A stretch of DNA of 64,000 bases from Patescibacteria group bacterium (lineage in GTDB: Bacteria; Patescibacteriota; Minisyncoccia; Phycocordibacterales; SBAW01). Made by a program: the position numbers and the translations under genes. Below the pieces are notes generated by a model that saw only the letters and a program-made list of their open reading frames with translations, was not told the origin of the DNA and searched no databases. Positions 1,236-30,484 of this stretch are shown here, one piece after another. The DNA is taken from NCBI GenBank assembly GCA_040389385.1, contig JAZKAA010000003.1, forward strand, positions 39,295 through 103,294, given 5' to 3'. The number at the start of each line of letters is the position of its first letter. Positions within the stretch are counted from its first letter, which is position 1.

Positions 1236-2099
1236 ATGGCCGCTTTCCCCATGCGACAGCTTAAAACCAGCGAGTGGCCGGTGCTCTTAAAAGAGATACC
1301 TGACAAGCCCTCTACTTTATATATCCGCGGCACCATGCCGCCTAAAGACTACGCGCTCTTGTGCGTTGTCGGCAGCCGCGCGTGCTCGCCGTATGCGCGC
1401 CGCATGACCCAAAAAATAATCGCGGGGCTCGCACAATACCCGGTAGCTATAGTCTCCGGCATGGCGCTCGGCCTGGATAGCGAGGCGCACAAAGCCGCGC
1501 TTGATGTCGGCCTGCCCACCATAGCGGTGCTGCCATCATCGGCCGACGAGGAGAGTATCTACCCCTCGACCAACCGGCCGCTTGCTCAGCGTATACTTGC
1601 GCGCGGGAGCGCACTCATAAGCGAGTCGGGCAAACCGCACAAGGCCGCTATATATGACTTCCCCAAGCGCAACCGCATTAGCGCAGGCATGTGCACGGCG
1701 ACACTTATAGTAGAGGCGGGCGAAAAGTCGGGCACGCTTATCACCGCGCGCCTGGCACTCGACTACAACCGCGAGGTGCTTGCTATCCCCCACGAAATCG
1801 GCCGCGAGACAGGCGCCGGCGTCAACCGCTTGATACGCGAGGGTGCAACCTTGGTGCGTGACGCAAGCGACGTGCTGCAGGCGCTCGGGCTAAAAGAGAC
1901 CGAGCCTACGCAGCAAGCGCTGCCGACTGACCTCTCCGAGACAGAAGCGCGGGTACTCCACACTCTCACCGAAGCGCTCGTGCGCGACGAACTTATTGAG
2001 CTTGCCGAGCTTAGCGCGCAAGATGCCGGTGTCGCATTGTCGTCGCTATTAATCCGCGGATTGATAACCGAACGGCTTGGCAAAATTGAAAGGGTGTAG
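1236..2099 (+). CDS. dprA: DNA processing protein DprA/Smf
   Basis: 287 aa; LCVVGSRACSPYA...VSGMALGLDSEAHKAAL Rossmann-like DprA core. Confidence 0.85.
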   Translation: MAAFPMRQLKTSEWPVLLKEIPDKPSTLYIRGTMPPKDYALLCVVGSRACSPYARRMTQKIIAGLAQYPVAIVSGMALGLDSEAHKAALDVGLPTIAVLPSSADEESIYPSTNRPLAQRILARGSALISESGKPHKAAIYDFPKRNRISAGMCTATLIVEAGEKSGTLITARLALDYNREVLAIPHEIGRETGAGVNRLIREGATLVRDASDVLQALGLKETEPTQQALPTDLSETEARVLHTLTEALVRDELIELAELSAQDAGVALSSLLIRGLITERLGKIERV

Positions 2100-2117
2100 T
2101 ATCAAGGAGCACTACTG

Positions 2118-4346
2118 ATGAAATTGGTAATTGTAGAAAGTCCTGCGAAAGCAAAGACCATAGAAAAATATTTGTCGGAGATAGACTCCGGCGGCGACTT
2201 CCGCGTACGCGCCAGCGTCGGCCATGTGCGCGACCTGCCCAAAAACAACAAAAAGGCTATCGACATTGAGGGCGGCTTTGTCCCTCACTACGAGGTGGTG
2301 GCCGGCAAGGCCGAGGTTATAGCCGACCTCAAAGCCTTGGCCAAAAAGGCCGATGAGGTAATACTCGCGACCGACCCCGACCGCGAGGGCGAGGCTATTG
2401 CCTGGCACATCCAACAGGAGCTCAAGCTCAAAAAGCCCGACCGCATCGTATTTCACGAAATCACAAAAGACGCGATAGCCGAGGCGCTTGCACACCCGCG
2501 CGCGATAGACGAGCACCTGCGCGCGGCGCAAGAGGCACGCCGCGTCTTGGACCGCCTGGTGGGGTACGATCTCTCAGGCCTGATTTGGAAAAAGGTCCGC
2601 TATGGATTGTCTGCAGGTCGCGTGCAGTCGCCGGCGCTGCGCATACTCATGGAGCGCGAGCGCGAGATACGCGCCTTTGTGCCGGAAACTTTTTTTGTAA
2701 TAACCGCACAAACAGAGACGCCCAAAAAGGCCACGCTGGCTCTAACCTGTGTTGAGGAGCCTAAGAAGAAGGGCGAGGCCGAACATATAGTAGAGGCGGT
2801 CAAAAAAGACGGTCTCACAATTGCCGACGTCGGCGAGGCAGAGGCCAAGCGCGCTGCGCGCCCACCGCTCACAACCTCGACCTTGCAGCAGGCTGCCAGC
2901 TCGCGCCTGGGCTACTCGCCCGCTAACACCATGCGCATTGCGCAAAAGTTGTACGAGCAGGGACACATAACCTACATGCGCACAGACTCGGTCAACTTGG
3001 GTGCGCCGGCGCGCGCCGCAATACTGGCTGCGGTAGAAAAAAAGTTTGGCAAAGAGTATGCCGAGTCGCGCACCTATACCGCCAAGTCTAAAAACGCGCA
3101 GGAGGCGCACGAGGCTATCCGCCCCACCAATGTGGCCAAAGAGTCGGCCGGCACCACGCCGGAGCAAAAAAAGCTGTACGAGCTTATCTGGCGCCGCGCG
3201 GTTGCGTCACAAATGGCCGATGCCAAGGTACTCAAGACAAAAATTGTCGCCAAGACCAAAGACGCCAAAGTGCCGGAGTTTGTGGCCACCGGCTCGCGCG
3301 TACTCTTCCCGGGTTGGCTGGCGTGCGACACCGCCGCGCGCGGCGAGGATGTCGAGCTACCCAAAGTTGCTGTAGGAGAGGCGCTCAAAGTTAATAGTGT
3401 TGATATTGAGGAAAAGCAGACCACGCCGCCGCCGCGCTACACCGAGGCTGGGCTGGTTAAGGAGCTAGAAAAGCGAGGCATCGGCCGCCCCAGCACCTAC
3501 GCGTCAATAATGAAGACGCTCGCCGACCGCGGCTATGTCGAGAAGGAGGGTCGCAGCCTCAAGCCCACTGACACGGGCGACGTGGTATCGAGCTTTTTAG
3601 AAGCGAACTTCCCCACCTACATATCCGACACGTTTACCGCCGAGATGGAGGATGAGTTGGACGACATCGCCACCGGCAAGCGCGAGTATGCAAAAACGCT
3701 CAAAGACTTTTATGGTCCGTTTCTTAAAGAGGTAAAGATAAAAGACAAAGAGGCCGGCAAGATTACCGACCTGGGGCCCACTCCGGCCGAGTTTACGTGC
3801 CCGCTCTGTAGCAGCACGATGGTGTACAAACTCTCGCGCCAGGGCAAGTTTATGTCGTGCAGCAAGTTCCCCGACTGCATTGGCGCACGCACAGAGTTGG
3901 GCGAAATCTTGAGCAACGAGCCCGCCAAACCAATCGGCAAGCACCCGGAGACCGGCGAGGATATTTATGTACTGGACGGCCGCTTTGGGCCGTATGTGCA
4001 GTTGGGCGAGATGCCGACCGGTAAAGGCAAAACTAAAAAGGCCAAGCCGCGCCGCTCGAGCTTGCCCAAAGACAAAAAGCCGGAAGACGTAACACTGGCC
4101 GACGCTTTGATTTATCTCTCGCTCCCACGCGAGCTTGGTGTGCACCCGGTAACTGGAGAGAAAATAATCGCCAACGTGGGGCGCTTTGGCCCGTACATTG
4201 CACATAACACCAAACCCAAACCCGACTTCCGCTCCCTAAAAACCGACAGCCCGTACGACATCACCTTTGAGCGTGCGTTGGAGATATTGAAAGAAGAAAA
4301 GAAACGTAGAGGCTTTGCACGCAAAACAAAAACCACCGACAAGTAG
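2118..4346 (+). CDS. topA: DNA topoisomerase I
   Basis: 742 aa; N-terminal Toprim (MKLVIVESPAKAKTIEKYL), catalytic-Tyr region (YMRTDS), C-terminal Zn-ribbon (CPLCSS...CSKFPDC). Confidence 0.92.
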   Translation: MKLVIVESPAKAKTIEKYLSEIDSGGDFRVRASVGHVRDLPKNNKKAIDIEGGFVPHYEVVAGKAEVIADLKALAKKADEVILATDPDREGEAIAWHIQQELKLKKPDRIVFHEITKDAIAEALAHPRAIDEHLRAAQEARRVLDRLVGYDLSGLIWKKVRYGLSAGRVQSPALRILMEREREIRAFVPETFFVITAQTETPKKATLALTCVEEPKKKGEAEHIVEAVKKDGLTIADVGEAEAKRAARPPLTTSTLQQAASSRLGYSPANTMRIAQKLYEQGHITYMRTDSVNLGAPARAAILAAVEKKFGKEYAESRTYTAKSKNAQEAHEAIRPTNVAKESAGTTPEQKKLYELIWRRAVASQMADAKVLKTKIVAKTKDAKVPEFVATGSRVLFPGWLACDTAARGEDVELPKVAVGEALKVNSVDIEEKQTTPPPRYTEAGLVKELEKRGIGRPSTYASIMKTLADRGYVEKEGRSLKPTDTGDVVSSFLEANFPTYISDTFTAEMEDELDDIATGKREYAKTLKDFYGPFLKEVKIKDKEAGKITDLGPTPAEFTCPLCSSTMVYKLSRQGKFMSCSKFPDCIGARTELGEILSNEPAKPIGKHPETGEDIYVLDGRFGPYVQLGEMPTGKGKTKKAKPRRSSLPKDKKPEDVTLADALIYLSLPRELGVHPVTGEKIIANVGRFGPYIAHNTKPKPDFRSLKTDSPYDITFERALEILKEEKKRRGFARKTKTTDK

Positions 4347-4376
4347 TGGCTTTTGCCCTTTCTTGTTGGTGGTTGA

Positions 4377-4598
4377 TTAGTTTGACAGCCAGCGGTAGCA
4401 CAGGCGACGCTGGAAGAAAAACGCGTCCATGATGTCGATGCCGAGTTCGGCAGCGACTTGCTTTGTGTTGGCCACAAAGTGCTTCAGGGCTTCGAGCCCT
4501 GCAGCTTGGTTGACGCCATCGAGACGATAGCGTTGCATGAACTTGACGCCGATGTCTTCGAACTTTCTTTCCTGTTCAGAATCGCGGTAGTAGTTCAT
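4377..4598 (-). CDS. hypothetical small protein (73 aa)
   Basis: ORF with AGGAG-like RBS upstream of ATG (MNYYRDSEQERKF...); convergent with topA; no recognisable domain. Confidence 0.35.
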   Translation of the reverse strand: MNYYRDSEQERKFEDIGVKFMQRYRLDGVNQAAGLEALKHFVANTKQVAAELGIDIMDAFFFQRRLCYRWLSN

Positions 4599-4710
4599 TG
4601 TGGGCTCCTGCCAAGGTTCAGTATTTCCTCTCTATTATACACCCAGACAATAGGTTTGTCAAGGTGTCAAATAGACCCTTATTTTAAGGCTTATTGGTTA
4701 TACTGGGCGT

Positions 4711-6210
4711 ATGCCTCTATCCGGCGCACAGGAGATTACGGCGCTTATGCGCTCGCCCAGCTCGGCTGATAAGGAGCTGGTGGAAAAGGCCTACGCCTTT
4801 GCGATGGTCGCGCACAAGGACCATAAGCGCTACAGCGGCGAGCCATACATCGGCCACCTGGTAGAGACTGCCAAAGGCTTGGCCGGGCTCGGGCTGTCGG
4901 CCAAAACAGTCGCGGCCGGTTTATTGCACGACAGTATCGAGGACGCGGGCATTTTACCCGAGACATTGGAAAAGGAGTTCGGCAAAGAGATACGATTTTT
5001 GGTGGAGGGCGTAACCAAGCTCGGACACGTTAAGTACCACGGAGCGGAGCGCCATCGCGAGAGCATGCGCAAGCTGCTGGTGGCAACCGGCAAAGATGCG
5101 CGGGTTTTGATAATCAAGCTGATGGACCGCCTGCACAATATGCGCACGCTTGTGCATGTGCCCGAGGCCAAGCGTGCGCGCATTGCGCTGGAGACACTAG
5201 AAATATACGCAGCCATTGCCCACCGCTTGGGTATGGGGCTCGTCCGCCGCGAGTTGGAGGACCTTGCGTTTGAGTATGCTTTGCCGGCAGAGTTTAAAGA
5301 AACAAAAACGCTCCTCAACACTCAAAGCCGCACGACGCTCGAGCGTCTGGAAAAGATGGTCAAAACGCTGCGCAAAGAGTTTGGAAAAAATGGCATCACC
5401 AAGTTTCGCACCGACGCGCGGGTTAAGGGCCTGTACAGCTTGTACCGCAAACTGCAGCGCAAAGAGGGCGATATAGAAAAGATTTATGACATCGCGGCGC
5501 TGCGCATTATTGTGCCAAGCGTCACCGACTGCTACCGCGTCTTAGGATTGGTCAACAATATTTGGCAGCCGCTGCCGGGCAAGATTAAAGACTACATTGC
5601 CTTCCCCAAGCCCAACGGGTATCAATCGCTCCACACCACCGTCTTTACCGGCGACGGCGGCATTGTCGAGGTACAAATACGCACCGAGGAAATGCACGCC
5701 GAGGCCGAGCTTGGTATCGCCGCGCACGTCGGCTACAAAGAGGGCGCGCCCAAGTCGGGCAGCTTTGACTGGATAAAAAGTCTGGTGCCCGGCTTTAAGA
5801 GGGAGAAGGCCGCCGAGGACGCCGCGCACAAGCGCTACAGCGCGATAGGTGCGCCCGACTGGCTAGCCGACATAGGCGACGACGCACAAGAGCCCGATAT
5901 CGAGACGGCGCTTAAGACCGACCTCTTTAGCCGCCGGGTGTTTGTCTTTACCCCCACGGGCGATGTCGTCGACCTCCCCGCCGACTCGTCCCCTATCGAC
6001 TTTGCGTACGCGATACACTCCGACATCGGCGACCACGCGTTTGGTGCCAAGGTCAACGGCAAGATGGTCCACCTGGACACACATCTCCACAACGGCGACA
6101 TTGTCGAGATACAAACGCGAAAGACTGCCCACCCCTCAAAAAAATGGCTCGACTTTACCAAAACCACCATGGCGCGTCGCCACATCCGCAACGCGCTCGA
6201 GAAGCAGTAG
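4711..6210 (+). CDS. rel: bifunctional (p)ppGpp synthetase/hydrolase Rel/SpoT homolog (short form: HD + synthetase + TGS, no ACT)
   Basis: 499 aa; HD motif (HDSIED), RelA/SpoT synthetase region (RIIVPSVTDCYRVLG...), TGS-like C-terminus (GKMVHLDTHLHNGDIVEI). Confidence 0.88.
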   Translation: MPLSGAQEITALMRSPSSADKELVEKAYAFAMVAHKDHKRYSGEPYIGHLVETAKGLAGLGLSAKTVAAGLLHDSIEDAGILPETLEKEFGKEIRFLVEGVTKLGHVKYHGAERHRESMRKLLVATGKDARVLIIKLMDRLHNMRTLVHVPEAKRARIALETLEIYAAIAHRLGMGLVRRELEDLAFEYALPAEFKETKTLLNTQSRTTLERLEKMVKTLRKEFGKNGITKFRTDARVKGLYSLYRKLQRKEGDIEKIYDIAALRIIVPSVTDCYRVLGLVNNIWQPLPGKIKDYIAFPKPNGYQSLHTTVFTGDGGIVEVQIRTEEMHAEAELGIAAHVGYKEGAPKSGSFDWIKSLVPGFKREKAAEDAAHKRYSAIGAPDWLADIGDDAQEPDIETALKTDLFSRRVFVFTPTGDVVDLPADSSPIDFAYAIHSDIGDHAFGAKVNGKMVHLDTHLHNGDIVEIQTRKTAHPSKKWLDFTKTTMARRHIRNALEKQ

Positions 6211-6846
6211 CTACTCCGCCAGGTGCGCGTGGTCGTTCCACACCCATAGACGCCACGACTGAGCTCTTTGCTCGTCGTGTGTAAATAGAGATACGGACGT
6301 ATTGAGTGGGGTGTCTATGTTCCACGTTATACTCTGTATCTCCTGTGCTGTGGGCTTGAGATTAAAAATTACATGGGCCAGTAGAATTCGCACAAAAAAC
6401 CCGTGCGTGACAACTACTATGTGCTCTTCTTGCCGCTTGGCTAAAAAATCCAACGCCGCATTTGCGCGTGCCGTATGTTCGTCGTAACCCTCCTCATCTC
6501 CAAAGTGATACCCCGGACCATAATTAGAGCGGAGCGTTTTGTATGCGGCAACAGCTTCAGGGCTTGTTTCAGACATGCCTATAAACTGGGTCATACCCCG
6601 ACCTTCAGCAAATAATGCGTTGTACTCGGGCTGTATGCCTATTTTTTGTGTAATACATTCAGCGGTCTGCTTTGTCCGTAGAAAAGGACTGGCTATAAAT
6701 GCTTCAACCGGTAGTTTGGACACCCGATCGGCAATAATAGCCGCCTCCTTGAAACCCAGCTCAGTGAGAGGACTGTCCGGAGCTTGGTGTACTTTTTTAA
6801 CATTATCTTCCGATTGACCGTGGCGGACAAAGTAGACTGTCTTCAT
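6211..6846 (-). CDS. histidine phosphatase family (phosphoglycerate-mutase-like) protein
   Basis: 211 aa; N-terminal RHGQS catalytic motif, later VVVTHG. Confidence 0.75.
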   Translation of the reverse strand: MKTVYFVRHGQSEDNVKKVHQAPDSPLTELGFKEAAIIADRVSKLPVEAFIASPFLRTKQTAECITQKIGIQPEYNALFAEGRGMTQFIGMSETSPEAVAAYKTLRSNYGPGYHFGDEEGYDEHTARANAALDFLAKRQEEHIVVVTHGFFVRILLAHVIFNLKPTAQEIQSITWNIDTPLNTSVSLFTHDEQRAQSWRLWVWNDHAHLAE

Positions 6847-7820
6847 AGACTAAAACTTGACGGGTCGAAGGTATTTTCGTCCCTTTCTATTTCGTCTTTG
6901 CTGCGGTCATCCAGAGGTCCCGCAAAAGTTTCCGACGGAGGAGTTGGGGTCGTGTCTATCTCTCCGGAGGCGGAAAGCTTTTGCGGGACCTCTGCCCTAT
7001 TTGAGAGCTGCGCCAGTATCGACTTCAAATCCTCCTCGGCCATGTAGTCAATCACCAGCTTGCCTCCCTTTTCTTTTGGCTCGATGACGACGCGTGTACC
7101 AAGCACACTGGAGAGTTCGCGCTCCATCTCAAGCACATCGGGGGAGAAAAGATATTCCTTTTTGCGCACACGGTCTTGGGCAATGCGCCGCGCCATGTTC
7201 TCCGCGTCGCGCACCGTAACGCGCCGAATCAAAATCTCTTTAAACAGCACCAGCTGCTCCTCTTTGCGGTCGGCCAACATCAACAAAGGTCGCGTGTGGC
7301 CTTCGCTTATCTTGCCGTCTTGCAGCGCCTGCTGCATCTCTACCGGCAGCGCCAACAGGCGTATCGAGTTGCTGACATACTCCCTGCTCTTGCCCACTTT
7401 CTCAGCAATCTCGGTGTGTTTGAAATTAAATTGCTTGGCCAACTGGTCAAACGCCTTGGCGCGGTCTATCGGGTTGAGGTCCTCGCGCTGCAGGTTTTCT
7501 ATAATAGCGAGCTCCAGCTTGGTCTTGTCGTCGTCAAAAGCGGCACGGATAAGCACCGGCACCTCGCGTACGCCCGCCAACTTGGCCGCGCGCAGGCGGC
7601 GCTCGCCGGCAATCAGCTCGTACTCGGCGGCGATGCCGCCATCGGGCTTTTCTACCTCTTTGCGGCTGACGGTAAGCGGCTGGATAACGCCGTACTGTCG
7701 TATCGAGCGCGCAAGGTCGGCCAGCTTGGCCTCGTCAAACTCCCTGCGAGGTTGAAAGGGGTTAGGCGTGATTTTATCCACCTCGACCCAAAAAATCGCG
7801 TTATTGTAAAACTGCGACAT
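6843..7820 (-). CDS. parB: ParB/Spo0J-like partition/nucleoid-occlusion protein (start adjusted to MSQFYNN... ~7820)
   Basis: ParB N-domain motifs ITPNPFQPRR, IQPLTV, YELIAGERRLRAAKLAG; HTH; no parA adjacent in the window. Confidence 0.8.
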   Translation of the reverse strand: MSQFYNNAIFWVEVDKITPNPFQPRREFDEAKLADLARSIRQYGVIQPLTVSRKEVEKPDGGIAAEYELIAGERRLRAAKLAGVREVPVLIRAAFDDDKTKLELAIIENLQREDLNPIDRAKAFDQLAKQFNFKHTEIAEKVGKSREYVSNSIRLLALPVEMQQALQDGKISEGHTRPLLMLADRKEEQLVLFKEILIRRVTVRDAENMARRIAQDRVRKKEYLFSPDVLEMERELSSVLGTRVVIEPKEKGGKLVIDYMAEEDLKSILAQLSNRAEVPQKLSASGEIDTTPTPPSETFAGPLDDRSKDEIERDENTFDPSSFSL

Positions 7821-7866
7821 ACGGGATATTCTAACACAGCACACAATGCCGGGATGGCGGAATTGG

Positions 7867-11118: not shown

Positions 11119-11646
11119 CTAAGGAAGCTTGGTCGCCCCGGGGCAGAAGCTAAACCCAAGACTGGTATTGGCATATGCGGTGCTAACCCACGCCGGCGTG
11201 GTAACCATATATTTGAGGTGGCACATCTCGGTCTGGGTGATACCCAAGTGCTGCATCAAGTACTGCTCCGCCTGCATGCGGGCGCTGCCCAAAGGCTCCT
11301 GCATAAGTGCAATATTAAAGTAATCGGTCGCCGCAATATACTCGATAACATACGGGACCGTAGGCGACGTATTAACTGCTGGGTTGATATAATTTCCTAC
11401 AAAGTAATGCCCTTTGTTGTTAGAGTCCTCTTTTGTCTGAGGGTCCTTTAATATGTCCTTTCGGAGCGAGGTGCCGGTATCGGGATTTATCGCAGGCCTA
11501 CTGTCCGGCAAACCATTTTGTGATGTGGTGTCAGCAGGGGCAGCGGCGGGCGCACCAAGGCCGCCAAAAATAAACATCACGACAACTACCGCTGCAATAA
11601 GTACCGCGACAATAAGGCCAAGGACTATGTATTGGGTTTTATTCAT
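11119..11646 (-). CDS. hypothetical membrane-anchored extracytoplasmic protein (175 aa)
   Basis: N-terminal TM (IVLGLIVAVLIAAVVVVMFIFGG) then Pro/Ala/Thr linker and a globular domain; immediately downstream of the 655-aa secreted protein. Confidence 0.5.
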   Translation of the reverse strand: MNKTQYIVLGLIVAVLIAAVVVVMFIFGGLGAPAAAPADTTSQNGLPDSRPAINPDTGTSLRKDILKDPQTKEDSNNKGHYFVGNYINPAVNTSPTVPYVIEYIAATDYFNIALMQEPLGSARMQAEQYLMQHLGITQTEMCHLKYMVTTPAWVSTAYANTSLGFSFCPGATKLP

Positions 11647-11657
11647 ACGCGATCGAA

Positions 11658-13625
11658 TTAATTATTCGCATAATTTTTTACACATGTGCTTGCGGCCGCG
11701 TTCCATGGTTGACCATACGCGGTGCCTCCACATCCTGACGGGGAATTACATGTGCCCGTCCACGGCTGATATGGGTTGTTGGGGTTAGCATTCATCAGCG
11801 CTATGGCCACCTGCTGGTTGCACTGCACGTTATTTTGGGCGGCGGTTATATTTCCTCCAAAATCAGCCGCGGTGCACCCGGACGGAGCGTACTTGGTCCA
11901 ATTGCCTCGCGTAATTTGGAAAGCGCCGCACGCATTGGTATCACTACAGCCTACAGAGTTGCCGGACAGTTCAGTCACGGCTATACACGACATCACATTA
12001 GCTTGCGTTTGCGTCATTCCGAGTCCGGCAAGTGTACCAACATCGCAGTTGGTATTACCGGTCATACATTGAGCGTAACCTCTCGAGCCACCGCTGATCC
12101 CGCCGCCAGGAACCTCCTTCCAATTATCTTCGTTGTTGGGGTTGTTTGGATCAAAGGTGGTGCCGTTTTTTTGACACCAATATTCTTTACCGTCATTTGC
12201 ACATGCGTATCCCGCTCCGCAATTGCCGCAAATATCCCCGCCCACATAGCCTTGATTTTGTCCCGACGTGTATTGAGAGGTGTAGCCGCCCACTGCAACT
12301 CCCGGCTTGCTGGTATCCAAGCCGCCGTTTTGACCAAACACGGAGTTAAATAACTTGTCCAACGAGGTTGTGTTGCCGTTGGGGCCGAGGATTGTGCCGG
12401 CGCGCTGGGCCTTTGAGCAATCGAGCCGATTCCAACTCTGATACTGCTGCGGATTTAAAATAAATTTGAGCATAGTCTGGATAATGAGCCATGCGGAGAT
12501 AGCGATAAGAAAGCCCCAAAACGCAACGCGCAGAGCCGCCTTGGCGCGCTCAATATTGCTTAGGCTCGATGCGGAGGTAAAGTACAAAATGCCCGCCCAT
12601 GCAAACATCAATGCCGCAATGGGTATCGAAAATCCGATGACAAAGTTAATTATTTTTTGCCCGAGAGATGCAAAGTCGCATAGCTGACAATTGAGCCCTG
12701 TACACACTTGCGCGATGCCAGGGCCGGTGCTCCCGTTGGTTGTGGCCGGCGTAACGGTTGTCTGCTGGCCCGGGGTCACGGTGCCCGCGCCGGCCGAGCC
12801 CGGAGTGCCAACCGCGCCCGGGGCACCTACTGACCCGCCTGAGTCGACACCGCCCGGGTCGACAAAGCTCCCGTTGCTGGGGTTAAACGTGATGGGTACC
12901 GAGCACGTGCCCGTGCCGCCGGGGCCGGTAAAGGTGCCTGTATATGTCGTCTGCACATTTGAGGACAAGGAGGTCGGGGGCAATATCCCCTGCTGGCCGC
13001 TCGGGCCTACAGAGCCCAAGCCCGTGATGGTGCCGCCGGTCGCGTCGACACTCTGCCACTTGAGCGTGACGGTTTGGCCGGTGGTGTAAGTGCTTGGGGT
13101 GGCAAAAATTTGGCATGTCGGTTTTTGGACGCCGCTGTTTAGCGTCAGCTGCGCGCCAAATAGAGGCAAGGCGCCGTTGACCACTGCCGACGTGTTGATG
13201 GCGGTGATGTTTATGTCAAAAAACTGGCCCTGATTAGCCGTAAGGTTGCCCGCCACCGTCGCAAACACCACTACCGTGCGAGCCTCGCCTGAAGGGATAG
13301 AAAGCGACAGCGGCACGGTTGCGGTGCCTCCCGACAACGTCGCCGACCCTAGCGTATTGTTTTGAGTATCAACCGCAGTGAGCTTGGTAACAACGCTGTC
13401 GGGGGCTGAGCCCACACGCTGCACTGTAATGCTGCTGATAGTCGCGGCGCTGCTTGCAGTAAAGGTAACCGCCACCGCCGGCAAGTTGGCACCGGGCATA
13501 ACGGTAGCGTTGGGCGGCTGGCCGCCGTTAGGCGTACTGACGCTCACCAACGGCACCGTCTGTGCCATAGCAAGCATCGGGGCCAAATATGCAACGACCA
13601 ACACAAGGGCAAAGACCCGCTTCAT
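11658..13625 (-). CDS. large secreted mosaic protein: signal peptide + beta-rich repeat region + Cys-rich segment + embedded VirB2/TrbC-like two-TM 'pilin' module + C-terminal lysozyme-like (SLT/goose-type) domain
   Basis: 655 aa. Signal peptide MKRVFALVLVVAYLAPMLAMAQT. T/S/G-rich beta region. CTGLNCQLCDF followed by two hydrophobic helices (INFVIGFSIPIAALMFAWAGILYF ... VAFWGFLIAISAWLIIQTML) resembling the small paralogs at 26.1-27.5 kb. C-terminus has E-L-S ... GAFQI, reminiscent of SLT motifs ExS / GLMQ. Confidence 0.6.
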   Translation of the reverse strand: MKRVFALVLVVAYLAPMLAMAQTVPLVSVSTPNGGQPPNATVMPGANLPAVAVTFTASSAATISSITVQRVGSAPDSVVTKLTAVDTQNNTLGSATLSGGTATVPLSLSIPSGEARTVVVFATVAGNLTANQGQFFDINITAINTSAVVNGALPLFGAQLTLNSGVQKPTCQIFATPSTYTTGQTVTLKWQSVDATGGTITGLGSVGPSGQQGILPPTSLSSNVQTTYTGTFTGPGGTGTCSVPITFNPSNGSFVDPGGVDSGGSVGAPGAVGTPGSAGAGTVTPGQQTTVTPATTNGSTGPGIAQVCTGLNCQLCDFASLGQKIINFVIGFSIPIAALMFAWAGILYFTSASSLSNIERAKAALRVAFWGFLIAISAWLIIQTMLKFILNPQQYQSWNRLDCSKAQRAGTILGPNGNTTSLDKLFNSVFGQNGGLDTSKPGVAVGGYTSQYTSGQNQGYVGGDICGNCGAGYACANDGKEYWCQKNGTTFDPNNPNNEDNWKEVPGGGISGGSRGYAQCMTGNTNCDVGTLAGLGMTQTQANVMSCIAVTELSGNSVGCSDTNACGAFQITRGNWTKYAPSGCTAADFGGNITAAQNNVQCNQQVAIALMNANPNNPYQPWTGTCNSPSGCGGTAYGQPWNAAASTCVKNYANN

Positions 13626-24966: not shown

Positions 24967-25401
24967 ATGACTCAACTGCCAAGGACGGTAAAGAAGACAG
25001 ACCGCCATACGGCGCGCTGGGCGACGCTGTTGCTCATCGTGTTTATGTTGGGGGTTCAGTACGCACCCGAGTCAATTCTGCTCTTGATAAGAATCAAAGA
25101 GTGGTTGCCGGACGTGCTTCTTCTTTACATGACGATCGAAATCTACGAGACATCACAACAAAGCTGGACCAAAATCACGGAATTCTTCTGGGACAACGGC
25201 TTGTCCTTCGCCGGCATGATCGTCGGCATCGTGATATTTGTCCTGCTGTTTGCCCGCCCGGGATATACGCTCAGCTACGAGCATATCCTGATCGAGCGTT
25301 GGTGCACACTCGCGTGCGCGTTCGACTTCTTTCTCGGTCTCGCAATCGTGTTCAGAATCACGTCTGCAGCCCGGGAGCGTGAAGAATTTCCCGCCCATTA
25401 A
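24967..25401 (+). CDS. hypothetical membrane protein (144 aa)
   Basis: Three or four hydrophobic helices; no motif recognised. Confidence 0.45.
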   Translation: MTQLPRTVKKTDRHTARWATLLLIVFMLGVQYAPESILLLIRIKEWLPDVLLLYMTIEIYETSQQSWTKITEFFWDNGLSFAGMIVGIVIFVLLFARPGYTLSYEHILIERWCTLACAFDFFLGLAIVFRITSAAREREEFPAH

Positions 25402-25418
25402 GACAACAGGAGACATCT

Positions 25419-25982
25419 ATGCGTGGTTTGTTTCGAATCCTCCTCGGGTTGGGAGCACTCGCTCTCTTCATCGGTGGAATCTACGGCGGTATCTGGTTCA
25501 AGGGTGCCCCGGCTGAACAACCGCCGCCCGAAAAGGTGGTGGAGAAAAAAGTCGACCCTGCCAAGCCGGCAGACGGCGGCACGTGCGAGGAGCGCGGGTT
25601 GCGCCTCGTTGCGTGCCGGACCGACGACATCCGCCGGGAGAAAGAGGCAAAGTCTGCTGCCAAGCCGGAGTCCAAAACCGACAGTAAGTGGCCTGCCTGG
25701 CTTCCGTCGCTGCCGGAGTACGAGCAGGGGGTGCCGAGCTACTGCGGCGGTACATACCCCAAGATCGTGCTCTATCGCGACCCTCAACAGATACCCGAGG
25801 GCTGCAAGAGCGCAACCATGCGGCCCACCGAGGGTGCCATTGAGTATCTCGACAAAGACCTCAACCCCTTGGTAAGAGAAAAGGCCAAGGGTCCCTCGGC
25901 CGGCAAGCTGCCCACCGCCTACTGGGTGCGCTCGGTCGGACCAAGGGCGGTTGCCATCGGCATCTTCCCGCCCAAGGACTAG
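25419..25982 (+). CDS. hypothetical secreted/membrane-anchored protein (187 aa)
   Basis: N-terminal signal/anchor LLGLGALALFIGGIYGGIWF; Lys/Pro-rich linker; Cys-containing C-domain. Confidence 0.5.
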   Translation: MRGLFRILLGLGALALFIGGIYGGIWFKGAPAEQPPPEKVVEKKVDPAKPADGGTCEERGLRLVACRTDDIRREKEAKSAAKPESKTDSKWPAWLPSLPEYEQGVPSYCGGTYPKIVLYRDPQQIPEGCKSATMRPTEGAIEYLDKDLNPLVREKAKGPSAGKLPTAYWVRSVGPRAVAIGIFPPKD

Positions 25983-26014
25983 ATCTTTGGTCTCAACAAA
26001 CAATACGGCGCGCT

Positions 26015-26097
26015 ACGAAAGTAGCGCGCCGCTTTATTTCCCGACGCTCTGGTCGGGACCCCGACCGCTTTCGCGCGTCGGGGTTTATTTTTTTAAT
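26015..26097. terminator. triple-hairpin bidirectional terminator region; its last two hairpins (26040-26097) form a repeat shared with 58726-58770
   Basis: GGCGCGCTAC-gaaa-GTAGCGCGCC, then CCCGAC-gctctg-GTCGGG, then CCCCGAC-cgctttcgcgc-GTCGGGG followed by TTTATTTTTTT. Confidence 0.6.
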
Positions 26098-26344
26098 GCA
26101 GCGAATTGACCGTATTTTGTATCAGCGTCAGTATCCCAAACGACGCGACCATAATAAACATGCCCACCACGCCCCATAGCATGTGCTGCTTGCCGGTGTT
26201 GCTCTCTTTGCCGCCCACGTTGGCTGCCCACAAAAATTGCACTAACCCCCAGATAAACACCACAAGCGCGATCCCAAAAATAAGCAGTATCGCGGGGTTG
26301 ATAAGCACTCTCGTCACGTTGTTGACGAGTGTCGTAACGTCCAT
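26093..26344 (-). CDS. small two-TM protein, VirB2/TrbC-like pilin-family paralog 1 (83 aa)
   Basis: Pattern hydrophobic helix-FIWGLVQFLW-Gly/Lys loop-MLWGVVGMFIMVASFGILTLIQNT; array of four similar genes. Confidence 0.55.
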   Translation of the reverse strand: MDVTTLVNNVTRVLINPAILLIFGIALVVFIWGLVQFLWAANVGGKESNTGKQHMLWGVVGMFIMVASFGILTLIQNTVNSLH

Positions 26345-26353
26345 ACAGTTAGC

Positions 26354-26632
26354 TTAGCGTTGTGGGACCTGCGGGATAGCCACCGGCGCCACCGAGACGC
26401 CGAGCGTGTTTTGCATCAAGCGGATGATACCCCAGACCGAGACCATCACAAAGAGTGCCAAAAGGCCTGCGATCATGATATGTCTACCGCTTGCGGCATC
26501 TTTGCCTGCACCTTTAACGTACTTAAAGAGACCCCAGAAAAAGATAATGACTGTAAGCGCAATGACTACCGGGATAAGCCGGTTGAGTGTGTCCCCTACA
26601 AAAGCAATGAGCTGCGGGATGTTGGATAGCAT
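26354..26632 (-). CDS. small two-TM protein, VirB2/TrbC-like paralog 2 (92 aa)
   Basis: IIFFWGLFKYVKGAGKDAASGRHIMIAGLLALFVMVSVWGIIRLMQNT. Confidence 0.55.
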   Translation of the reverse strand: MLSNIPQLIAFVGDTLNRLIPVVIALTVIIFFWGLFKYVKGAGKDAASGRHIMIAGLLALFVMVSVWGIIRLMQNTLGVSVAPVAIPQVPQR

Positions 26633-26700
26633 AAAAATCTATAAATGGTTATGTTAGTAAGTGTAGCATCCTCTAAACGGGCAAGGCCGGGCTCTGTGGA

Positions 26701-27033
26701 TTACGGCTGCCACTGTCCATAAGAGCTCGGACTGGTAAAGTTGGACGCCGTACCCGCATTTGGGGTCCCGCAATTTGACGCGAGCAAAGAGTCGCAGGCT
26801 ATACGCAGTATCCCCCAGATAGAAAAGAGGATAAACAGCGCCACGAGGCTCCAGACCATTGTTTTCCGGCGGCTTCCTGCACTTTTGCCTCCGGACGATT
26901 GGTATACATACTGAAACGCCCCCCACATAAACAAGAGCACCGCGGCTGCAGCCAGCACCCCCACCAGCTGATTGAGTATCCCCACAAGGTAGGCAATGAC
27001 CGAGGCAAACGTGGCAGTGGATGAGGTGACCAT
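26701..27033 (-). CDS. small two-TM protein, VirB2/TrbC-like paralog 3 (110 aa)
   Basis: LLFMWGAFQYVYQSSGGKSAGSRRKTMVWSLVALFILFSIWGILRIA. Confidence 0.55.
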   Translation of the reverse strand: MVTSSTATFASVIAYLVGILNQLVGVLAAAAVLLFMWGAFQYVYQSSGGKSAGSRRKTMVWSLVALFILFSIWGILRIACDSLLASNCGTPNAGTASNFTSPSSYGQWQP

Positions 27034-27453
27034 TTAGTTGCAGGTGAGAATATTGGCGCCGCCTATGGCGTTGATGGTGCCGGCTATAATCATCGCCAAG
27101 ACCCATGCGCCCACAAACAGCGCTATGCCTATAACGGTGTAATAAAAGTTGCGGCGCGCCGCCTGTAAGTCTTTTGGCTTGCCTTGCGCCAGGACAAACC
27201 TAAAGCCCGACCAAATAATAAACAGTACCGCCACAGGGATCCCGACAGCGACAGCGCCCTCGAGGATCTTTTTGAGCAGGCCGCAGACGCTGGTTACCTG
27301 GAGCGGATTGTTGACCGAGTAGGAGCCGTTAGAGGGTGTCGGTTGAGGTGTATCAAATGTAGCGGCTCCCGCCAACAGCGGCGCAGAAATCAAAAACATA
27401 ACAACAAGCCCGATAATAAACCGCTGCCTATATAAAGCTAAAGCCATATGCAA
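27034..27453 (-). CDS. small signal-peptide + two-TM protein, VirB2/TrbC-like paralog 4 (139 aa)
   Basis: Signal peptide; VLFIIWSGFRFVLAQGKPKDLQAARRNFYYTVIGIALFVGAWVLAMIIAG; directly abuts paralog 3 (no gap). Confidence 0.55.
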   Translation of the reverse strand: MHMALALYRQRFIIGLVVMFLISAPLLAGAATFDTPQPTPSNGSYSVNNPLQVTSVCGLLKKILEGAVAVGIPVAVLFIIWSGFRFVLAQGKPKDLQAARRNFYYTVIGIALFVGAWVLAMIIAGTINAIGGANILTCN

Positions 27454-27455
27454 AA

Positions 27456-28760
27456 TTACTGTCCGCGGTTGGGCAAAAGCGCGTTAAATCCTTGTGCCGC
27501 CTCGCTCACCGCGCCCGCCGGGTCGTTGGCGCCCGATAGCACCGATTGTATCATGGAGGCAAACAGCTGGTCGGTCGTTACGGGGTCCGGGTCTACCCAG
27601 CCGTGCGCAAGCAAAGCTGATTGTAAAAACACGCTCGCCGCCGCGTTGGCGGAGGTGTCCGCCGCCACGTCACGCCGCCCGGAGGGCAAGCCGGTGGTAG
27701 TCATCCATGTCGTTGCGGCCGCAGGCGAGGTGAGCTTTTGCGCCACGGCGAGCGCTCCGTTGGGATTTTTAGCACTGCGCGGTATAGCAAGCCCGCTCAG
27801 TCTGCCAAACGTGCTCTGGCTGCTCGACCCCTTAAGCTGCGGCAGTACCGCCACACCCACCGAGAGGTTGGGGTTGCGTGCCAAGAGCGCGCGGTACTCG
27901 CTCGCAAACCCAAAGTATGTGGCCAAGTTGCCCGCGGCAAAGGCGTCTGTGGAGTTGGGCAGAGCCCTGTTCCAAGAGTAGGTGGCCTTGGTCGGATTGG
28001 CAAACTCGGTGTAAAAGCGCAATGCCGCGGCGGCCGGCGCCTCTGTCGCACCGTTGGGGACCGACCCAAAGGTCGATACAAGCGCGCCGCTCGCCGTGCG
28101 CCCCGTCAGCAACTCCCCCGCCTGGATAAACAGTGCCGAGAGTATCGCCTTGGCGTCCGTAATGTTGCCCCAGGTGCCAAGTGCTACGGCGCTGCGCGTA
28201 ACACCCTGCGAGCTGTCGAGTTTGCGCAGGATTGGCGATATGTTGAGCAGGTCGCTCCAGTATTGCGGCGGCGAGGCTTGGCCTGCGCTCACGTACAAAT
28301 CGCGGTTCCAGTACATCACCAGCGGGTCGACATCAAACGGCAACGCAAGCACCCCTTGCGGCGTCAAAAACAGCCGCCCCTCGTCTATATAATTGGCAAG
28401 AAACGTCGCCTGCGACACCGCGGCGTACGGCACGAGCGCCACCTTGTCGCCAAACTGGCCGATGTCCTCTTGCGACACGACAAACAGGTCGGGCGCGGTG
28501 CCGGCGGCCATGGCGTTGAGCAGGTCGGCGCTGTAGGTGGTCGCGCTTTTTTCTATATATGTGGTGTCACTGAGCGAGCTGTCGCTTTGCCGCAGACTAT
28601 CGAGCAGGTACTGCATCGTGGCCTGGTCCTCGGTGCCCCAGATAGTTACCGCGCCGACGCTTTGTCCGCCAAAGGCACCGCCAAATATCGCAAAAATGGC
28701 AACCCCCGCGATGAGGAAAAAGGCAAACAACCCTATGACAACCATTTGGAATCCCGACAT
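27456..28760 (-). CDS. extracellular solute-binding protein (ABC-transporter SBP family 1-like), N-terminally membrane-anchored; no permease or ATPase adjacent
   Basis: 434 aa; N-terminal TM then DLFVVSQEDIGQFGDKVALVPY..., typical of sugar-type SBPs. Confidence 0.65.
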   Translation of the reverse strand: MSGFQMVVIGLFAFFLIAGVAIFAIFGGAFGGQSVGAVTIWGTEDQATMQYLLDSLRQSDSSLSDTTYIEKSATTYSADLLNAMAAGTAPDLFVVSQEDIGQFGDKVALVPYAAVSQATFLANYIDEGRLFLTPQGVLALPFDVDPLVMYWNRDLYVSAGQASPPQYWSDLLNISPILRKLDSSQGVTRSAVALGTWGNITDAKAILSALFIQAGELLTGRTASGALVSTFGSVPNGATEAPAAAALRFYTEFANPTKATYSWNRALPNSTDAFAAGNLATYFGFASEYRALLARNPNLSVGVAVLPQLKGSSSQSTFGRLSGLAIPRSAKNPNGALAVAQKLTSPAAATTWMTTTGLPSGRRDVAADTSANAAASVFLQSALLAHGWVDPDPVTTDQLFASMIQSVLSGANDPAGAVSEAAQGFNALLPNRGQ

Positions 28761-28761
28761 G

Positions 28762-29337
28762 CTAGTGTTTGGTGCCCTGACTCTTCTTCTTTAGTATACA
28801 GCCCCAATGATAGGCGCCTGCGGGTAATGCATCTCCCGCCACAAAACCGTTTTGCTCAAAAACTTCGCGCGCTTGGTCTTGGGTAACCACGTGGTCCTCG
28901 CGGGGCCCGAGGCCACCAAACGTGCCCGCCCAGTCTACAAGTGCAACCTTGCCGCCCGGCTTAAGCACCCGGGCGGCCTCTCCCGCCACACAGCCCTTGC
29001 ACTCCATCGCAAAGAGCGTGTTGCAGATAAACACCATATCAAAATAGTTTTCCGGTAGGTGTGTGCCGCCCAGATGCGAGACATCGCCCTGCATCACCTC
29101 GATATTTTTGAGCCCTTCGCCTTGCGCGACATTTTTTATCCGCGGCAGCAGGTCGCGATTTTGGTCCACAGCCCACACCACACCGCCGGGGCCTACCGCG
29201 CGGCCCAACGCGCGCGCGACAAAGCCCGAGCCGGCGCCAAAGTCGGCGACCTTCATCCCCTCATGCACCATCGCGGCGTGCACAAGCTTGGCAGGATTTA
29301 AAAAAGAGCTTTCAGCCATGCACTCATTGTAACGCAA
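28762..29337 (-). CDS. class I SAM-dependent methyltransferase
   Basis: Motif I VADFGAGSGFVA, post-I acidic residue, LKPGGKVALVDW. Confidence 0.75.
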   Translation of the reverse strand: MRYNECMAESSFLNPAKLVHAAMVHEGMKVADFGAGSGFVARALGRAVGPGGVVWAVDQNRDLLPRIKNVAQGEGLKNIEVMQGDVSHLGGTHLPENYFDMVFICNTLFAMECKGCVAGEAARVLKPGGKVALVDWAGTFGGLGPREDHVVTQDQAREVFEQNGFVAGDALPAGAYHWGCILKKKSQGTKH

Positions 29338-29355
29338 AATAAAAAGACGCCCTTG

Positions 29356-29745
29356 TTAGAGCGTCCCGGTGTAGCCGACCAATTGGGCAAAGCGGATTTT
29401 GGCGTTCATCCAACCGCTAGTCAGTGGTGCGAAGAAACACTTGCGCGAGCCACCCCACTGACAGCGCCAGTAGGAATATTCTGCCCCCGGCCACGTCGGA
29501 GTCGCTTCCGAAAACGGCACCGTCTCCTTAATTGAGACAACGTAGTACCCAGCCGAGGTGATTTTGACATCTGCGTCGGTTAGCCCGAAGCAGTCCCGCT
29601 CGCCGCAACACAACTCGCCGGCCGCATTTTTGAAGCCCCCGCGCTGAATCCACTCCGCAGGCCCATGCGCGTGAGCCACCGACAGCGCAATCCACAAGCA
29701 CGCTCCCGCCACAAGCAAAGCCAAGCCGTAGCATATAGCTCGCAT
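29356..29745 (-). CDS. hypothetical small secreted Cys-rich protein (129 aa)
   Basis: Signal peptide LALLVAGACLWIALSVAHA; CCGERDC motif. Confidence 0.45.
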   Translation of the reverse strand: MRAICYGLALLVAGACLWIALSVAHAHGPAEWIQRGGFKNAAGELCCGERDCFGLTDADVKITSAGYYVVSIKETVPFSEATPTWPGAEYSYWRCQWGGSRKCFFAPLTSGWMNAKIRFAQLVGYTGTL

Positions 29746-29866: not shown

Positions 29867-30484
29867 TTATTTCTGACAGTTTGGGGACTTAGCGATATCT
29901 TTGGGGATAGTGAGAGAATTCTCTTTCTCCAGAAAACTCATCACCTGCCACTTGTCGGGTATCAACACCTCCGCGACGCCACTATGGAGACGCTCCGGCT
30001 GCTGGTTGGCGGCGCGCACTTTGGAGATATTGAGCTGTACCTTGCTGAGCACAGGTCGGCCGGGGGCCAGAAACGTTTTGAGTACCCGCTGACACGGCTC
30101 CAGACTAATGGCGGTGGCCCCCATCTGAGCAAAGGCTGACTCGCCAAACTCTCTGGCGTACAACGCCTGCACAGAGACCTTGAGGGGGTGTGGGCTGTCG
30201 TTGTCGACAATGATCCCCAAGCGATAGACATCGTGTATGTCCACCCCCTCGTTCTTGAGGTCGCTTTGCCACTTGTCGGCGGCAAGTCCCGCAGAGCGCA
30301 GCAGACTCACAAACTCAATCGGGATTTTGGTGCAAAAGCGGGAGATTACGACGCGAGACTCCTTGTCGCGCTGGAGCCCGATGTCGAGCGGGGCCAGCCT
30401 ATCGGCACCGCAGTAGTCGCGGCCCTCGGCAGCAGCCGGGGCAACAAACAGGCAAAGCATCAGCAACAGGGCGCCGAGGCGCAT
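29867..30484 (-). CDS. hypothetical secreted protein (205 aa)
   Basis: Signal peptide MRLGALLLMLCLFVAPAAAEG. Confidence 0.45.
   Translation of the reverse strand: MRLGALLLMLCLFVAPAAAEGRDYCGADRLAPLDIGLQRDKESRVVISRFCTKIPIEFVSLLRSAGLAADKWQSDLKNEGVDIHDVYRLGIIVDNDSPHPLKVSVQALYAREFGESAFAQMGATAISLEPCQRVLKTFLAPGRPVLSKVQLNISKVRAANQQPERLHSGVAEVLIPDKWQVMSFLEKENSLTIPKDIAKSPNCQK

Follow-up and report, generated by a model that had tools for sequence, protein, structure and literature searches.

A predicted operon of a methyltransferase, a solute-binding protein, and four ordered VirB2/TrbC-like hairpin proteins in a Patescibacterium

Genomes of Patescibacteria can carry tandem arrays of small genes that resemble the VirB2 pilins of type IV secretion systems (T4SSs), and reviews have called the function of the T4SS and its pilin array completely unknown (PMC11665869, PMC12857230). 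One such array lies in a 64,000-nucleotide (nt) stretch of the genome of a Patescibacteria group bacterium (here, the window; GenBank assembly GCA_040389385.1, contig JAZKAA010000003.1, positions 39,295 to 103,294 of the forward strand), in which four co-directional, tightly spaced open reading frames (ORFs) of 83, 92, 110, and 139 amino acids (aa) occupy positions 26093 to 27453 of the minus strand. What do four pilin-like proteins do, and do they act together, at a chromosomal site with no secretion ATPase nearby? We found that the genes form a predicted operon, conserved among relatives, with a solute-binding protein (SBP) and a class I S-adenosylmethionine (SAM)-dependent methyltransferase (MTase). 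We consider it probable that the four proteins are heteromeric subunits of a pilus- or stalk-like part of a Patescibacterial monoderm-type T4SS, encoded away from its ATPase and working with the SBP at the host interface.

Arrays of this kind are already known in the phylum, since tandem VirB2-like arrays have been published (PMC12102498, PMC10633639). When PF18895 and PF04956 were searched for in 3,035 Patescibacteria genomes, 441 arrays of 2 to 11 VirB2-like genes emerged in 383 assemblies, with a mean identity among members of 25% and a maximum of 54% (PMC12102498). The locus in the window falls within that definition (i.e., at least two tandem PF18895/PF04956-type genes in a Patescibacteria genome), with four adjacent genes, and its members show a similarly low identity of 24 to 29% to the first member over one shared helix-loop-helix module. 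The nearest named relatives of the source genome are Adlerbacteria, Kaiserbacteria, and Paceibacterota, placing it in an Adlerbacteria-like lineage of the Paceibacteria, and the array is surrounded by chromosomal housekeeping genes (TopA, RelA, ParB, ClpB, IF-2, GyrA, LeuRS, LepA, MurJ, and 13 tRNAs).

The four ORFs had been delineated, with these sizes and positions, in an initial annotation made from the sequence alone, and our analysis confirmed them. The gene for class 1 (27034 to 27453, minus strand, as are all four) encodes 139 aa from a TTG start and comprises a signal peptide, a short variable region, and a helix-loop-helix hairpin. Class 2 (26701 to 27033; 110 aa) has a variable, Cys-containing C-terminal tail and no signal peptide in this genome; class 3 (26354 to 26632; 92 aa) also lacks a signal peptide here, although most of its orthologues carry one; and class 4 (26093 to 26344; 83 aa) is always the last and shortest member of the array. 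The intergenic gaps are 0, 68, and 9 nt. For class 1, an alternative ATG at 27447, two codons past the TTG, would give a 137-aa protein with a typical signal peptide (MALALYRQRF...LLAGA/AT). The GenBank protein (P0003) starts from an internal ATG, and its 121 aa truncate the signal and lack the charged N-region that orthologues conserve; the 137-aa version thus likely fits better. The corresponding locus tags, identified through exact protein matches annotated as "MAG: Patescibacteria group bacterium," are V4474_00910-00920, and the contig is 106 kb long.

Profile searches support the assignment of all four genes to homologous, pilin-like membrane hairpins of the VirB2/TrbC (T4SS-type) superfamily. 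PF18895 (T4SS_pilin) was the best or near-best Pfam family for each of them (E values from 4.6e-9 to 7.7e-3). Class 1 scored 36.7 bits (E = 4.6e-9), above the gathering score of 26.6 bits, and classes 2, 3, and 4 matched under this cut-off with E values of 2.3e-4, 7.7e-3, and 2.6e-4, respectively. The TrbC/VirB2 family PF04956 (gathering score, 27.9 bits) matched class 1 at a sub-gathering 22.6 bits (E = 1.3e-4), and the Pfam search returned no PF04956 match for classes 2 to 4 of the window. Among orthologues, all 10 class 1 proteins matched both PF18895 (best E = 5.2e-12) and TrbC at E <= 0.01 (best E = 2.4e-6), and 26 of 34 homologues of classes 2 to 4 matched PF18895 (best E = 3.3e-9). Many database orthologues bear precomputed PF18895 assignments, including close homologues of class 4 (65 to 83% identity), and some bear PF04956. 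A profile of class 1 orthologues aligned with a profile of the short classes at a probability of 93.9% (hhalign; E = 1.6e-7), and pairwise identity among the four paralogues is about 16 to 43% over the comparisons made, one of which gave 19 to 41%. The four have more than 1,700 database homologues, and the family comprises 10,944 cluster representatives at E <= 1e-3, of which 6,664 are retained at E <= 1e-10.

The architecture of the proteins agrees with this assignment. Alignment, hydropathy, and structure prediction all delimit a PF18895-type module of ~70 residues, in which a short polar loop separates two hydrophobic helices; the loop is basic in these proteins (e.g., KPKDLQAARR and GGKSAGSRRK). 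For both proteins modeled, AlphaFold2 predicted a pair of long helices connected through a short basic loop, with a helix predicted local distance difference test (pLDDT) score of about 80 to 85: class 1 has a signal-peptide helix (residues 2 to 26), a disordered linker, and helices at residues 52 to 89 and 91 to 128, and class 2, with a pLDDT of about 85, has helices at residues 9 to 46 and 55 to 87. All four proteins have the motif [FI]-x-W-[GS]-x-x-x-[FY] at the end of the first helix, the 139-aa protein having S at the G position. The initial annotation had also ascribed to each of them a second motif, S-x-W-G-I-x-x-L-x-Q-N-T; only the 92-aa protein has it in full, the 83- and 110-aa proteins have part of it, and the 139-aa protein lacks it. 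The annotation's distinction between VirB2/TrbC-like proteins and type IV pilins was borne out. We rejected the latter identity, as none of the four proteins has a class III prepilin leader, each has two transmembrane (TM) helices, and no type IV pilus family was matched in Pfam.

The array does not stand alone. Immediately upstream on the minus strand are genes for a 191-aa MTase (28762 to 29337), which is UbiE/ArsM-like (Pfam Methyltransf_31/11/25; E = 3e-16), with UbiE/ArsM-type matches in NCBIfam that are all sub-threshold, and for a 434-aa SBP (27456 to 28760; SBP_bac_8, E = 2.6e-21; SBP_bac_1, E = 5.5e-17). The SBP has an N-terminal hydrophobic anchor and weak matches in the PDB to mannooligosaccharide, trehalose/maltose, and sugar SBPs, so that it distantly resembles sugar-type SBPs. 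In the window, the MTase stop, the SBP start, the SBP stop, and the start of the first pilin gene abut or overlap. A terminator-like hairpin was detected just upstream of the MTase gene (29344 to 29367), and the array is closed by three consecutive stem-loops (25998 to 26084, minus strand) with a folding energy of -60.6 kcal/mol (z = -7.6 relative to shuffled sequences), which vindicates the triple-hairpin terminator noted initially. The last of these has a GC-rich stem of 12 bp with a U-rich tract behind it and, according to the terminator scan, is shared with a convergent plus-strand gene. Because the genes are tightly spaced and flanked by terminators, we predict a single transcription unit, MTase-SBP-pilin classes 1-2-3-4, that extends from ~29337 to ~26000 between the terminator-like hairpins.

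This gene order recurs among relatives. Three relatives found via pilin homologues share the same block (GyrA ... MTase, SBP, four pilins ... IF-2, ClpB), and 19 of the 21 loci in genomes of GTDB species with class 1 pilins have the arrangement MTase-SBP-[4 to 6 pilins]. In a reverse test that started from the SBP, we collected 80 metagenomic loci with 36 to 60% SBP identity, 69 of which had at least 600 nt of downstream sequence. A pilin ORF directly followed the SBP gene in 68 of these 69 loci, the single pilin-less locus probably being a truncated contig end, and the MTase preceded the SBP in 54 of the 59 loci with room for it; the arrays in these loci comprise 4 to 8 genes. The recurrent linkage, together with the abutting genes, makes the SBP an operon partner of the array, and not the lone protein bounding it that it was first taken for; the SBP and MTase had been missed as conserved partners.

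Within the operon, each array position corresponds to a separate class. Similarity within a position reaches 62 to 121 bits, compared with 0 to 79 bits between positions, and positional orthologues score 75 to 92 bits for class 2, 95 to 107 bits for class 3, and 87 to 113 bits for class 4. The order 1-2-3-4 was found in all close relatives examined: 22 arrays have exactly this order, 9 have one additional short gene in front of it, and in 4 class 3 is duplicated. The arrays of more distant relatives comprise 6 to 8 genes, mostly because class-3-like copies have been added in the middle, and in them, too, class 1 comes first and class 4 last. Orthologous pilins are 35 to 62% identical, close to the neighboring SBP and MTase (49 to 58%). 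This pattern argues for ancient, position-fixed, non-redundant paralogues that would be subunits of one heteromeric assembly. Natural fusions, in which a single polypeptide of 200 to 370 aa has two or three tandem hairpins (P0001, P0006, P0008, and P0241-P0250), likewise point to subunits of one assembly. The extra leading member of many relatives is a pilin-like gene of 71 to 78 aa between the SBP and class 1, and it is absent from the window; loci that have it include L006, L008-L010, L012, L013, L016, L019, L050, and L051.

A further hairpin protein is encoded in the window and bears on the orientation of the module in the membrane. Sequence and hydropathy divide this 655-aa secreted protein (11658 to 13625, minus strand) into a signal peptide, an N-terminal domain of 300 aa, a hairpin resembling PF18895 at about residues 320 to 390, and a Cys-rich C-terminal domain. 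It matched a family hidden Markov model (HMM) of the four pilins with an E value of 3e-6 and PF18895 below the cut-off (E = 5e-3). Its C-terminal domain had a weak, sub-threshold match to Destabilase/lysozyme-like proteins (E = 1e-3), and a search of this domain against PDB chains found nothing. In addition, a cleavable signal peptide is common among orthologues of classes 2 and 3, and a Cys just before helix 1 and another in the last few residues of class 1 are both present in 24 sequences, both absent from 5, and represented singly in 1, these sequences not being phylogenetically independent. Because of the optional signal peptides, the extracellular domains flanking the hairpin of the 655-aa protein, and the class 1 Cys pair, we infer that the hairpins have both termini outside and the basic loop inside. 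The Cys pair suggests a disulfide that would tie the two extracellular ends of class 1 together. TrbC and VirB2 pilins undergo head-to-tail cyclization, of which such a disulfide would be a possible analogue.

The 68-nt gap between classes 2 and 3 (26633 to 26700, minus strand) is itself conserved in cross-species alignments, with a median length of 76 nt in orthologues. In the window, the spacer contains a DnaA-box-like TAATCCACA, overlapping the class 2 stop codon, followed by an extended -10-like TGCTACACT; this composite motif occurs once in the 64 kb, at 26660 to 26701. All of the 22 unique orthologous spacers except the window copy (TAATCCACA) have (C/T)TATCCACA directly after the class 2 stop, a sequence that fits the DnaA-box consensus TTATCCACA, and the extended -10-like TGnTA(C/G)A(G/C)T lies ~35 to 40 nt further on in all 20 full-length spacers aligned. 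The motif TATCCACA was found 79 times in 90 related loci, of which 62 occurrences were within arrays and 53 were on the coding strand in the gap just upstream of a class-3-type gene. A sigma-70 consensus scan of the window called no internal promoter here; the case for one is made by cross-species conservation only. Rfam searches at gathering thresholds returned only tRNAs in the window, and the spacer is therefore not a known RNA family. The simplest reading is a putative internal promoter for classes 3 and 4 with a conserved protein-binding site; the idea that DnaA binds this site is speculation.

Taken as subunits of a distant T4SS, the four proteins would each enter the cytoplasmic membrane so that the basic loop faces inward and both termini face outward, class 1 via a cleaved signal peptide and the other classes via their first helix. 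The four non-redundant classes, some as major and some as minor subunits, would then assemble jointly into a single heteromeric structure. This structure would most likely be the pilus, or a stalk-like extracellular part, of the monoderm-type T4SS that is encoded elsewhere in the chromosome of most Patescibacteria, typically close to dnaA, and it would serve in host-cell contact or exchange. The SBP, co-transcribed with the array, would probably partner the structure by binding a ligand or a host glycan, and the conserved internal promoter could allow a separate, possibly DnaA-linked, expression of classes 3 and 4.

A distant location of the secretion machinery has precedents. VirB4 is encoded in 2,417 of 3,035 Patescibacteria assemblies (~80%), usually near dnaA, and of the 1,948 assemblies with both virB4 and a pilin gene, only 1,135 have the two close together (PMC12102498). 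In Paceibacteria, virB4 is near dnaA, at the origin (PMC12102498). A cluster of DprA, TopA, RelA/SpoT, and ParB genes occupies the left end of the window (1236 to 7844), and the presence of ParB may mean that the replication origin is not far beyond the window start.

Several results weigh against an assignment to a T4SS pilus. The adjacency to a virB3/virB4/virB6 cluster that is expected of functional T4SS pilin genes is not seen in the window, where, as the initial annotation had stated, no large ORF (over at least 26 kb on one side of the array and 36 kb on the other) has a VirB4, VirD4, or VirB6 domain. No recurrent ORF of at least 450 aa with a Walker A motif was found within 6 to 10 kb on either side of about 100 related loci, and in one relative that shares the operon, another 10 kb of a 534-kb contig, upstream of DprA, is free of T4SS genes. 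The three shorter proteins are individually under the PF18895 cut-off (21.6, 16.7, and 21.4 bits). Sequence and profile searches of PDB chains with both pilin profiles gave no significant match to solved pilins, so that homology to the VirB2/TrbC superfamily is argued from profiles and not from fold; a monomer fold search with the predicted hairpins was not discriminating either, as dozens of unrelated helical hairpins outscored an archaeal pilin. No pilus has been observed in any Patescibacterium as the product of these genes, and a complex embedded in the membrane would account equally well for the multi-hairpin fusions and for the strict linkage to the SBP.

The alternative that survives best is such a complex, independent of any T4SS and coupled to the SBP, in which proteins of VirB2 ancestry would no longer be pilus subunits and would form the TM part of an uptake or sensing device. 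The linkage of the array to the SBP (68 of 69 loci) and the MTase (54 of 59) speaks for this, as do the housekeeping surroundings of the operon, the lack of a T4SS ATPase in the window or the flanks of related loci, and the eight TM helices that four hairpins provide, which are naturally fused in twos and threes elsewhere. The Pfam search also found no ATP-binding cassette (ABC) permease (BPD_transp-type) or ABC ATPase among the pilins or any large ORF of the window. The same search gave no similarity of the pilins to any permease family, and we rejected an ABC-permease identity for them; nor does the operon have an energizing component. Moreover, the homology is to pilins, and in Saccharimonadia the equivalent arrays are part of the T4SS cluster and, like it, essential (PMC10633639), as in Southlakia epibionticum, in which the pilin array within the T4SS cluster SEML1_0006-0019 is essential (Wang et al. 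2023, PMC10633639). We therefore regard a T4SS-independent complex as a tentative alternative, clearly less probable than a T4SS appendage.

An SBP encoded without its own permease beside T4SS-related genes is not unique to this operon. PrgZ/TraC of enterococcal pheromone plasmids are orphan SBPs encoded with Gram-positive conjugation genes. PrgZ, however, is a peptide-binding family-5 SBP, whereas the SBP in the window is of the sugar-type family 1/8.

It is also possible, though doubtful, that the MTase-SBP-pilin operon encodes a distinct and deeply conserved apparatus of the Paceibacteria, a heteromer of 4 to 8 VirB2-derived hairpin classes that would work with a dedicated sugar-type SBP. 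Such an apparatus would be genomically, and possibly functionally, uncoupled from the T4SS ATPase, and its distal genes would be under a DnaA-box-controlled promoter that ties a surface organelle to the replication or cell cycle of the epibiont. If true, this would give the unexplained essential "pilin arrays" a connection to a ligand-binding protein and would suggest nutrient or host-glycan capture.

Less probable still, and in our judgment unlikely, is a role of the hairpin mainly as an anchor or insertion module for surface-displayed segments, with the four proteins forming no joint structure. Such a role would suit the 655-aa protein and the larger array members of relatives (up to 357 aa), in which a PF18895 hairpin bears additional extracellular domains, as well as the variable tails of the array proteins. 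Class 4 (83 aa) and the 71-aa extra member of relatives, however, have almost nothing beyond the hairpin to display, and the strict co-occurrence and order of the four classes argue for a joint function. One larger pilin-domain protein, similar to the 655-aa protein, is the first member of the array in a relative (L021); the 655-aa gene itself has a neighbor at 11119 to 11646.

Recent tandem diversification for antigenic or adhesive variation, which the initial annotation had suggested and which is raised in PMC12102498 as well, was proposed for the VirB2 arrays of Bartonella and Anaplasma (cited in PMC12102498), which share tandem diverged virB2-like genes with the locus studied here. The low identity among the paralogues and the divergence of the exposed N- and C-terminal tails between species (6 to 28% identity) are what such a process would leave. 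The hairpin cores, however, retain 42 to 59% mean pairwise identity between species and are about as conserved as the SBP and MTase; each close relative has a positional orthologue of every gene; lineage-specific duplication is confined to class 3; and no repeats, inversions, or silent cassettes were seen at the array. The paralogues here are ancient, ordered, and individually conserved across species, a picture at odds with variation by recent duplication. The fixed order and conserved cores thus argue against recent diversification and for a heteromeric assembly, and antigenic variation is an improbable explanation of the array. Chance resemblance among generic small hydrophobic ORFs, which could be entertained since hydrophobic two-helix proteins give many weak Pfam matches (DUF5336, RseC, and Ion_trans), is effectively refuted by the conservation data (i.e., PF18895 E values down to 5e-12 in orthologues, the 6,664 representatives noted above, and synteny in about 100 loci).

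The favored reading, subunits of a T4SS appendage encoded away from its ATPase, can be set against known systems. Other Patescibacteria arrays share with this one the chromosomal tandem arrangement, PF18895/PF04956 hairpins of divergent sequence and similar structure, an identity of ~25%, and the absence of a relaxase or conjugation context. The array in the window differs in being away from a virB4 cluster, in its four ordered classes within a fixed MTase-SBP-pilin operon, and in its Paceibacteria host, the published arrays being most abundant in Saccharimonadia and Microgenomatia (PMC12102498). The VirB2/TrbC/TraA pilins of Gram-negative bacteria (PF04956) likewise have two hydrophobic helices and a short basic loop, and class 1 resembles them in its signal peptide; in contrast, the host here is a monoderm, four co-conserved paralogues replace one major pilin, and the genes are not beside virB3/virB4. 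In place of their cyclization, class 1 has a conserved pair of N- and C-terminal Cys residues. A pilin-like protein family of a Mycoplasma integrative and conjugative element (ICE; Mbov_0395 family, NF045849) provides a small two-helix protein in a wall-less or monoderm setting and was matched weakly, at best by class 2 (E = 4e-6), but all scores are far under the curated cut-off (26 versus 40 bits), and the locus has no ICE context. The archaeal Ced/Ted pilins (Aeropyrum pernix, PDB 8dfu) show no sequence similarity to the array proteins and are the ones outscored by unrelated hairpins in the fold search.

The four-gene array on its own is an expected feature of such genomes, and the newly seen features are modest additions to it. 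To judge from the literature covered, neither the operon that joins the MTase and SBP to the pilins nor the fixed order of the classes, the Cys pair, or the DnaA-box-like promoter has been described before; Quinonero-Coronel et al. 2025 (PMC12102498) mention none of these features. The T4SS and pilin array are essential in the sole genetically tractable Patescibacterium (PMC11665869, PMC12857230). In a large clade of Paceibacteria, the pilins are a fixed, non-redundant set, wired to an SBP and an MTase rather than to a secretion ATPase and accompanied by a conserved regulatory site. The SBP ligand, the stoichiometry of the complex, the DnaA-box promoter, and the Cys staple thus offer testable handles on the function of the filament or complex.

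Two outlier loci of the genome scan carry a single pilin-like gene. A 219-aa ORF in a 2.6-Mb contig labeled "uncultured proteobacterium" (L015; CAVQBI010000001.1) is 51% identical to the class 1 hairpin and has the same Cys pair; it has no SBP/MTase context and may reflect horizontal transfer or a chimeric assembly. Neither this locus nor one from Peribacteria (L028) has an obvious VirB4 gene next to its pilin-like gene.

In the window, the operon is flanked by genes for small secreted, Cys-rich, or membrane proteins (29356 to 29745, 29867 to 30484, 25419 to 25982, and 24967 to 25401) that had no Pfam or NCBIfam match. Relatives have other genes than the window in the two positions downstream of the array, namely one for a 157- to 159-aa protein followed by one for a protein of 348 to 449 aa (Band_7 in L002).

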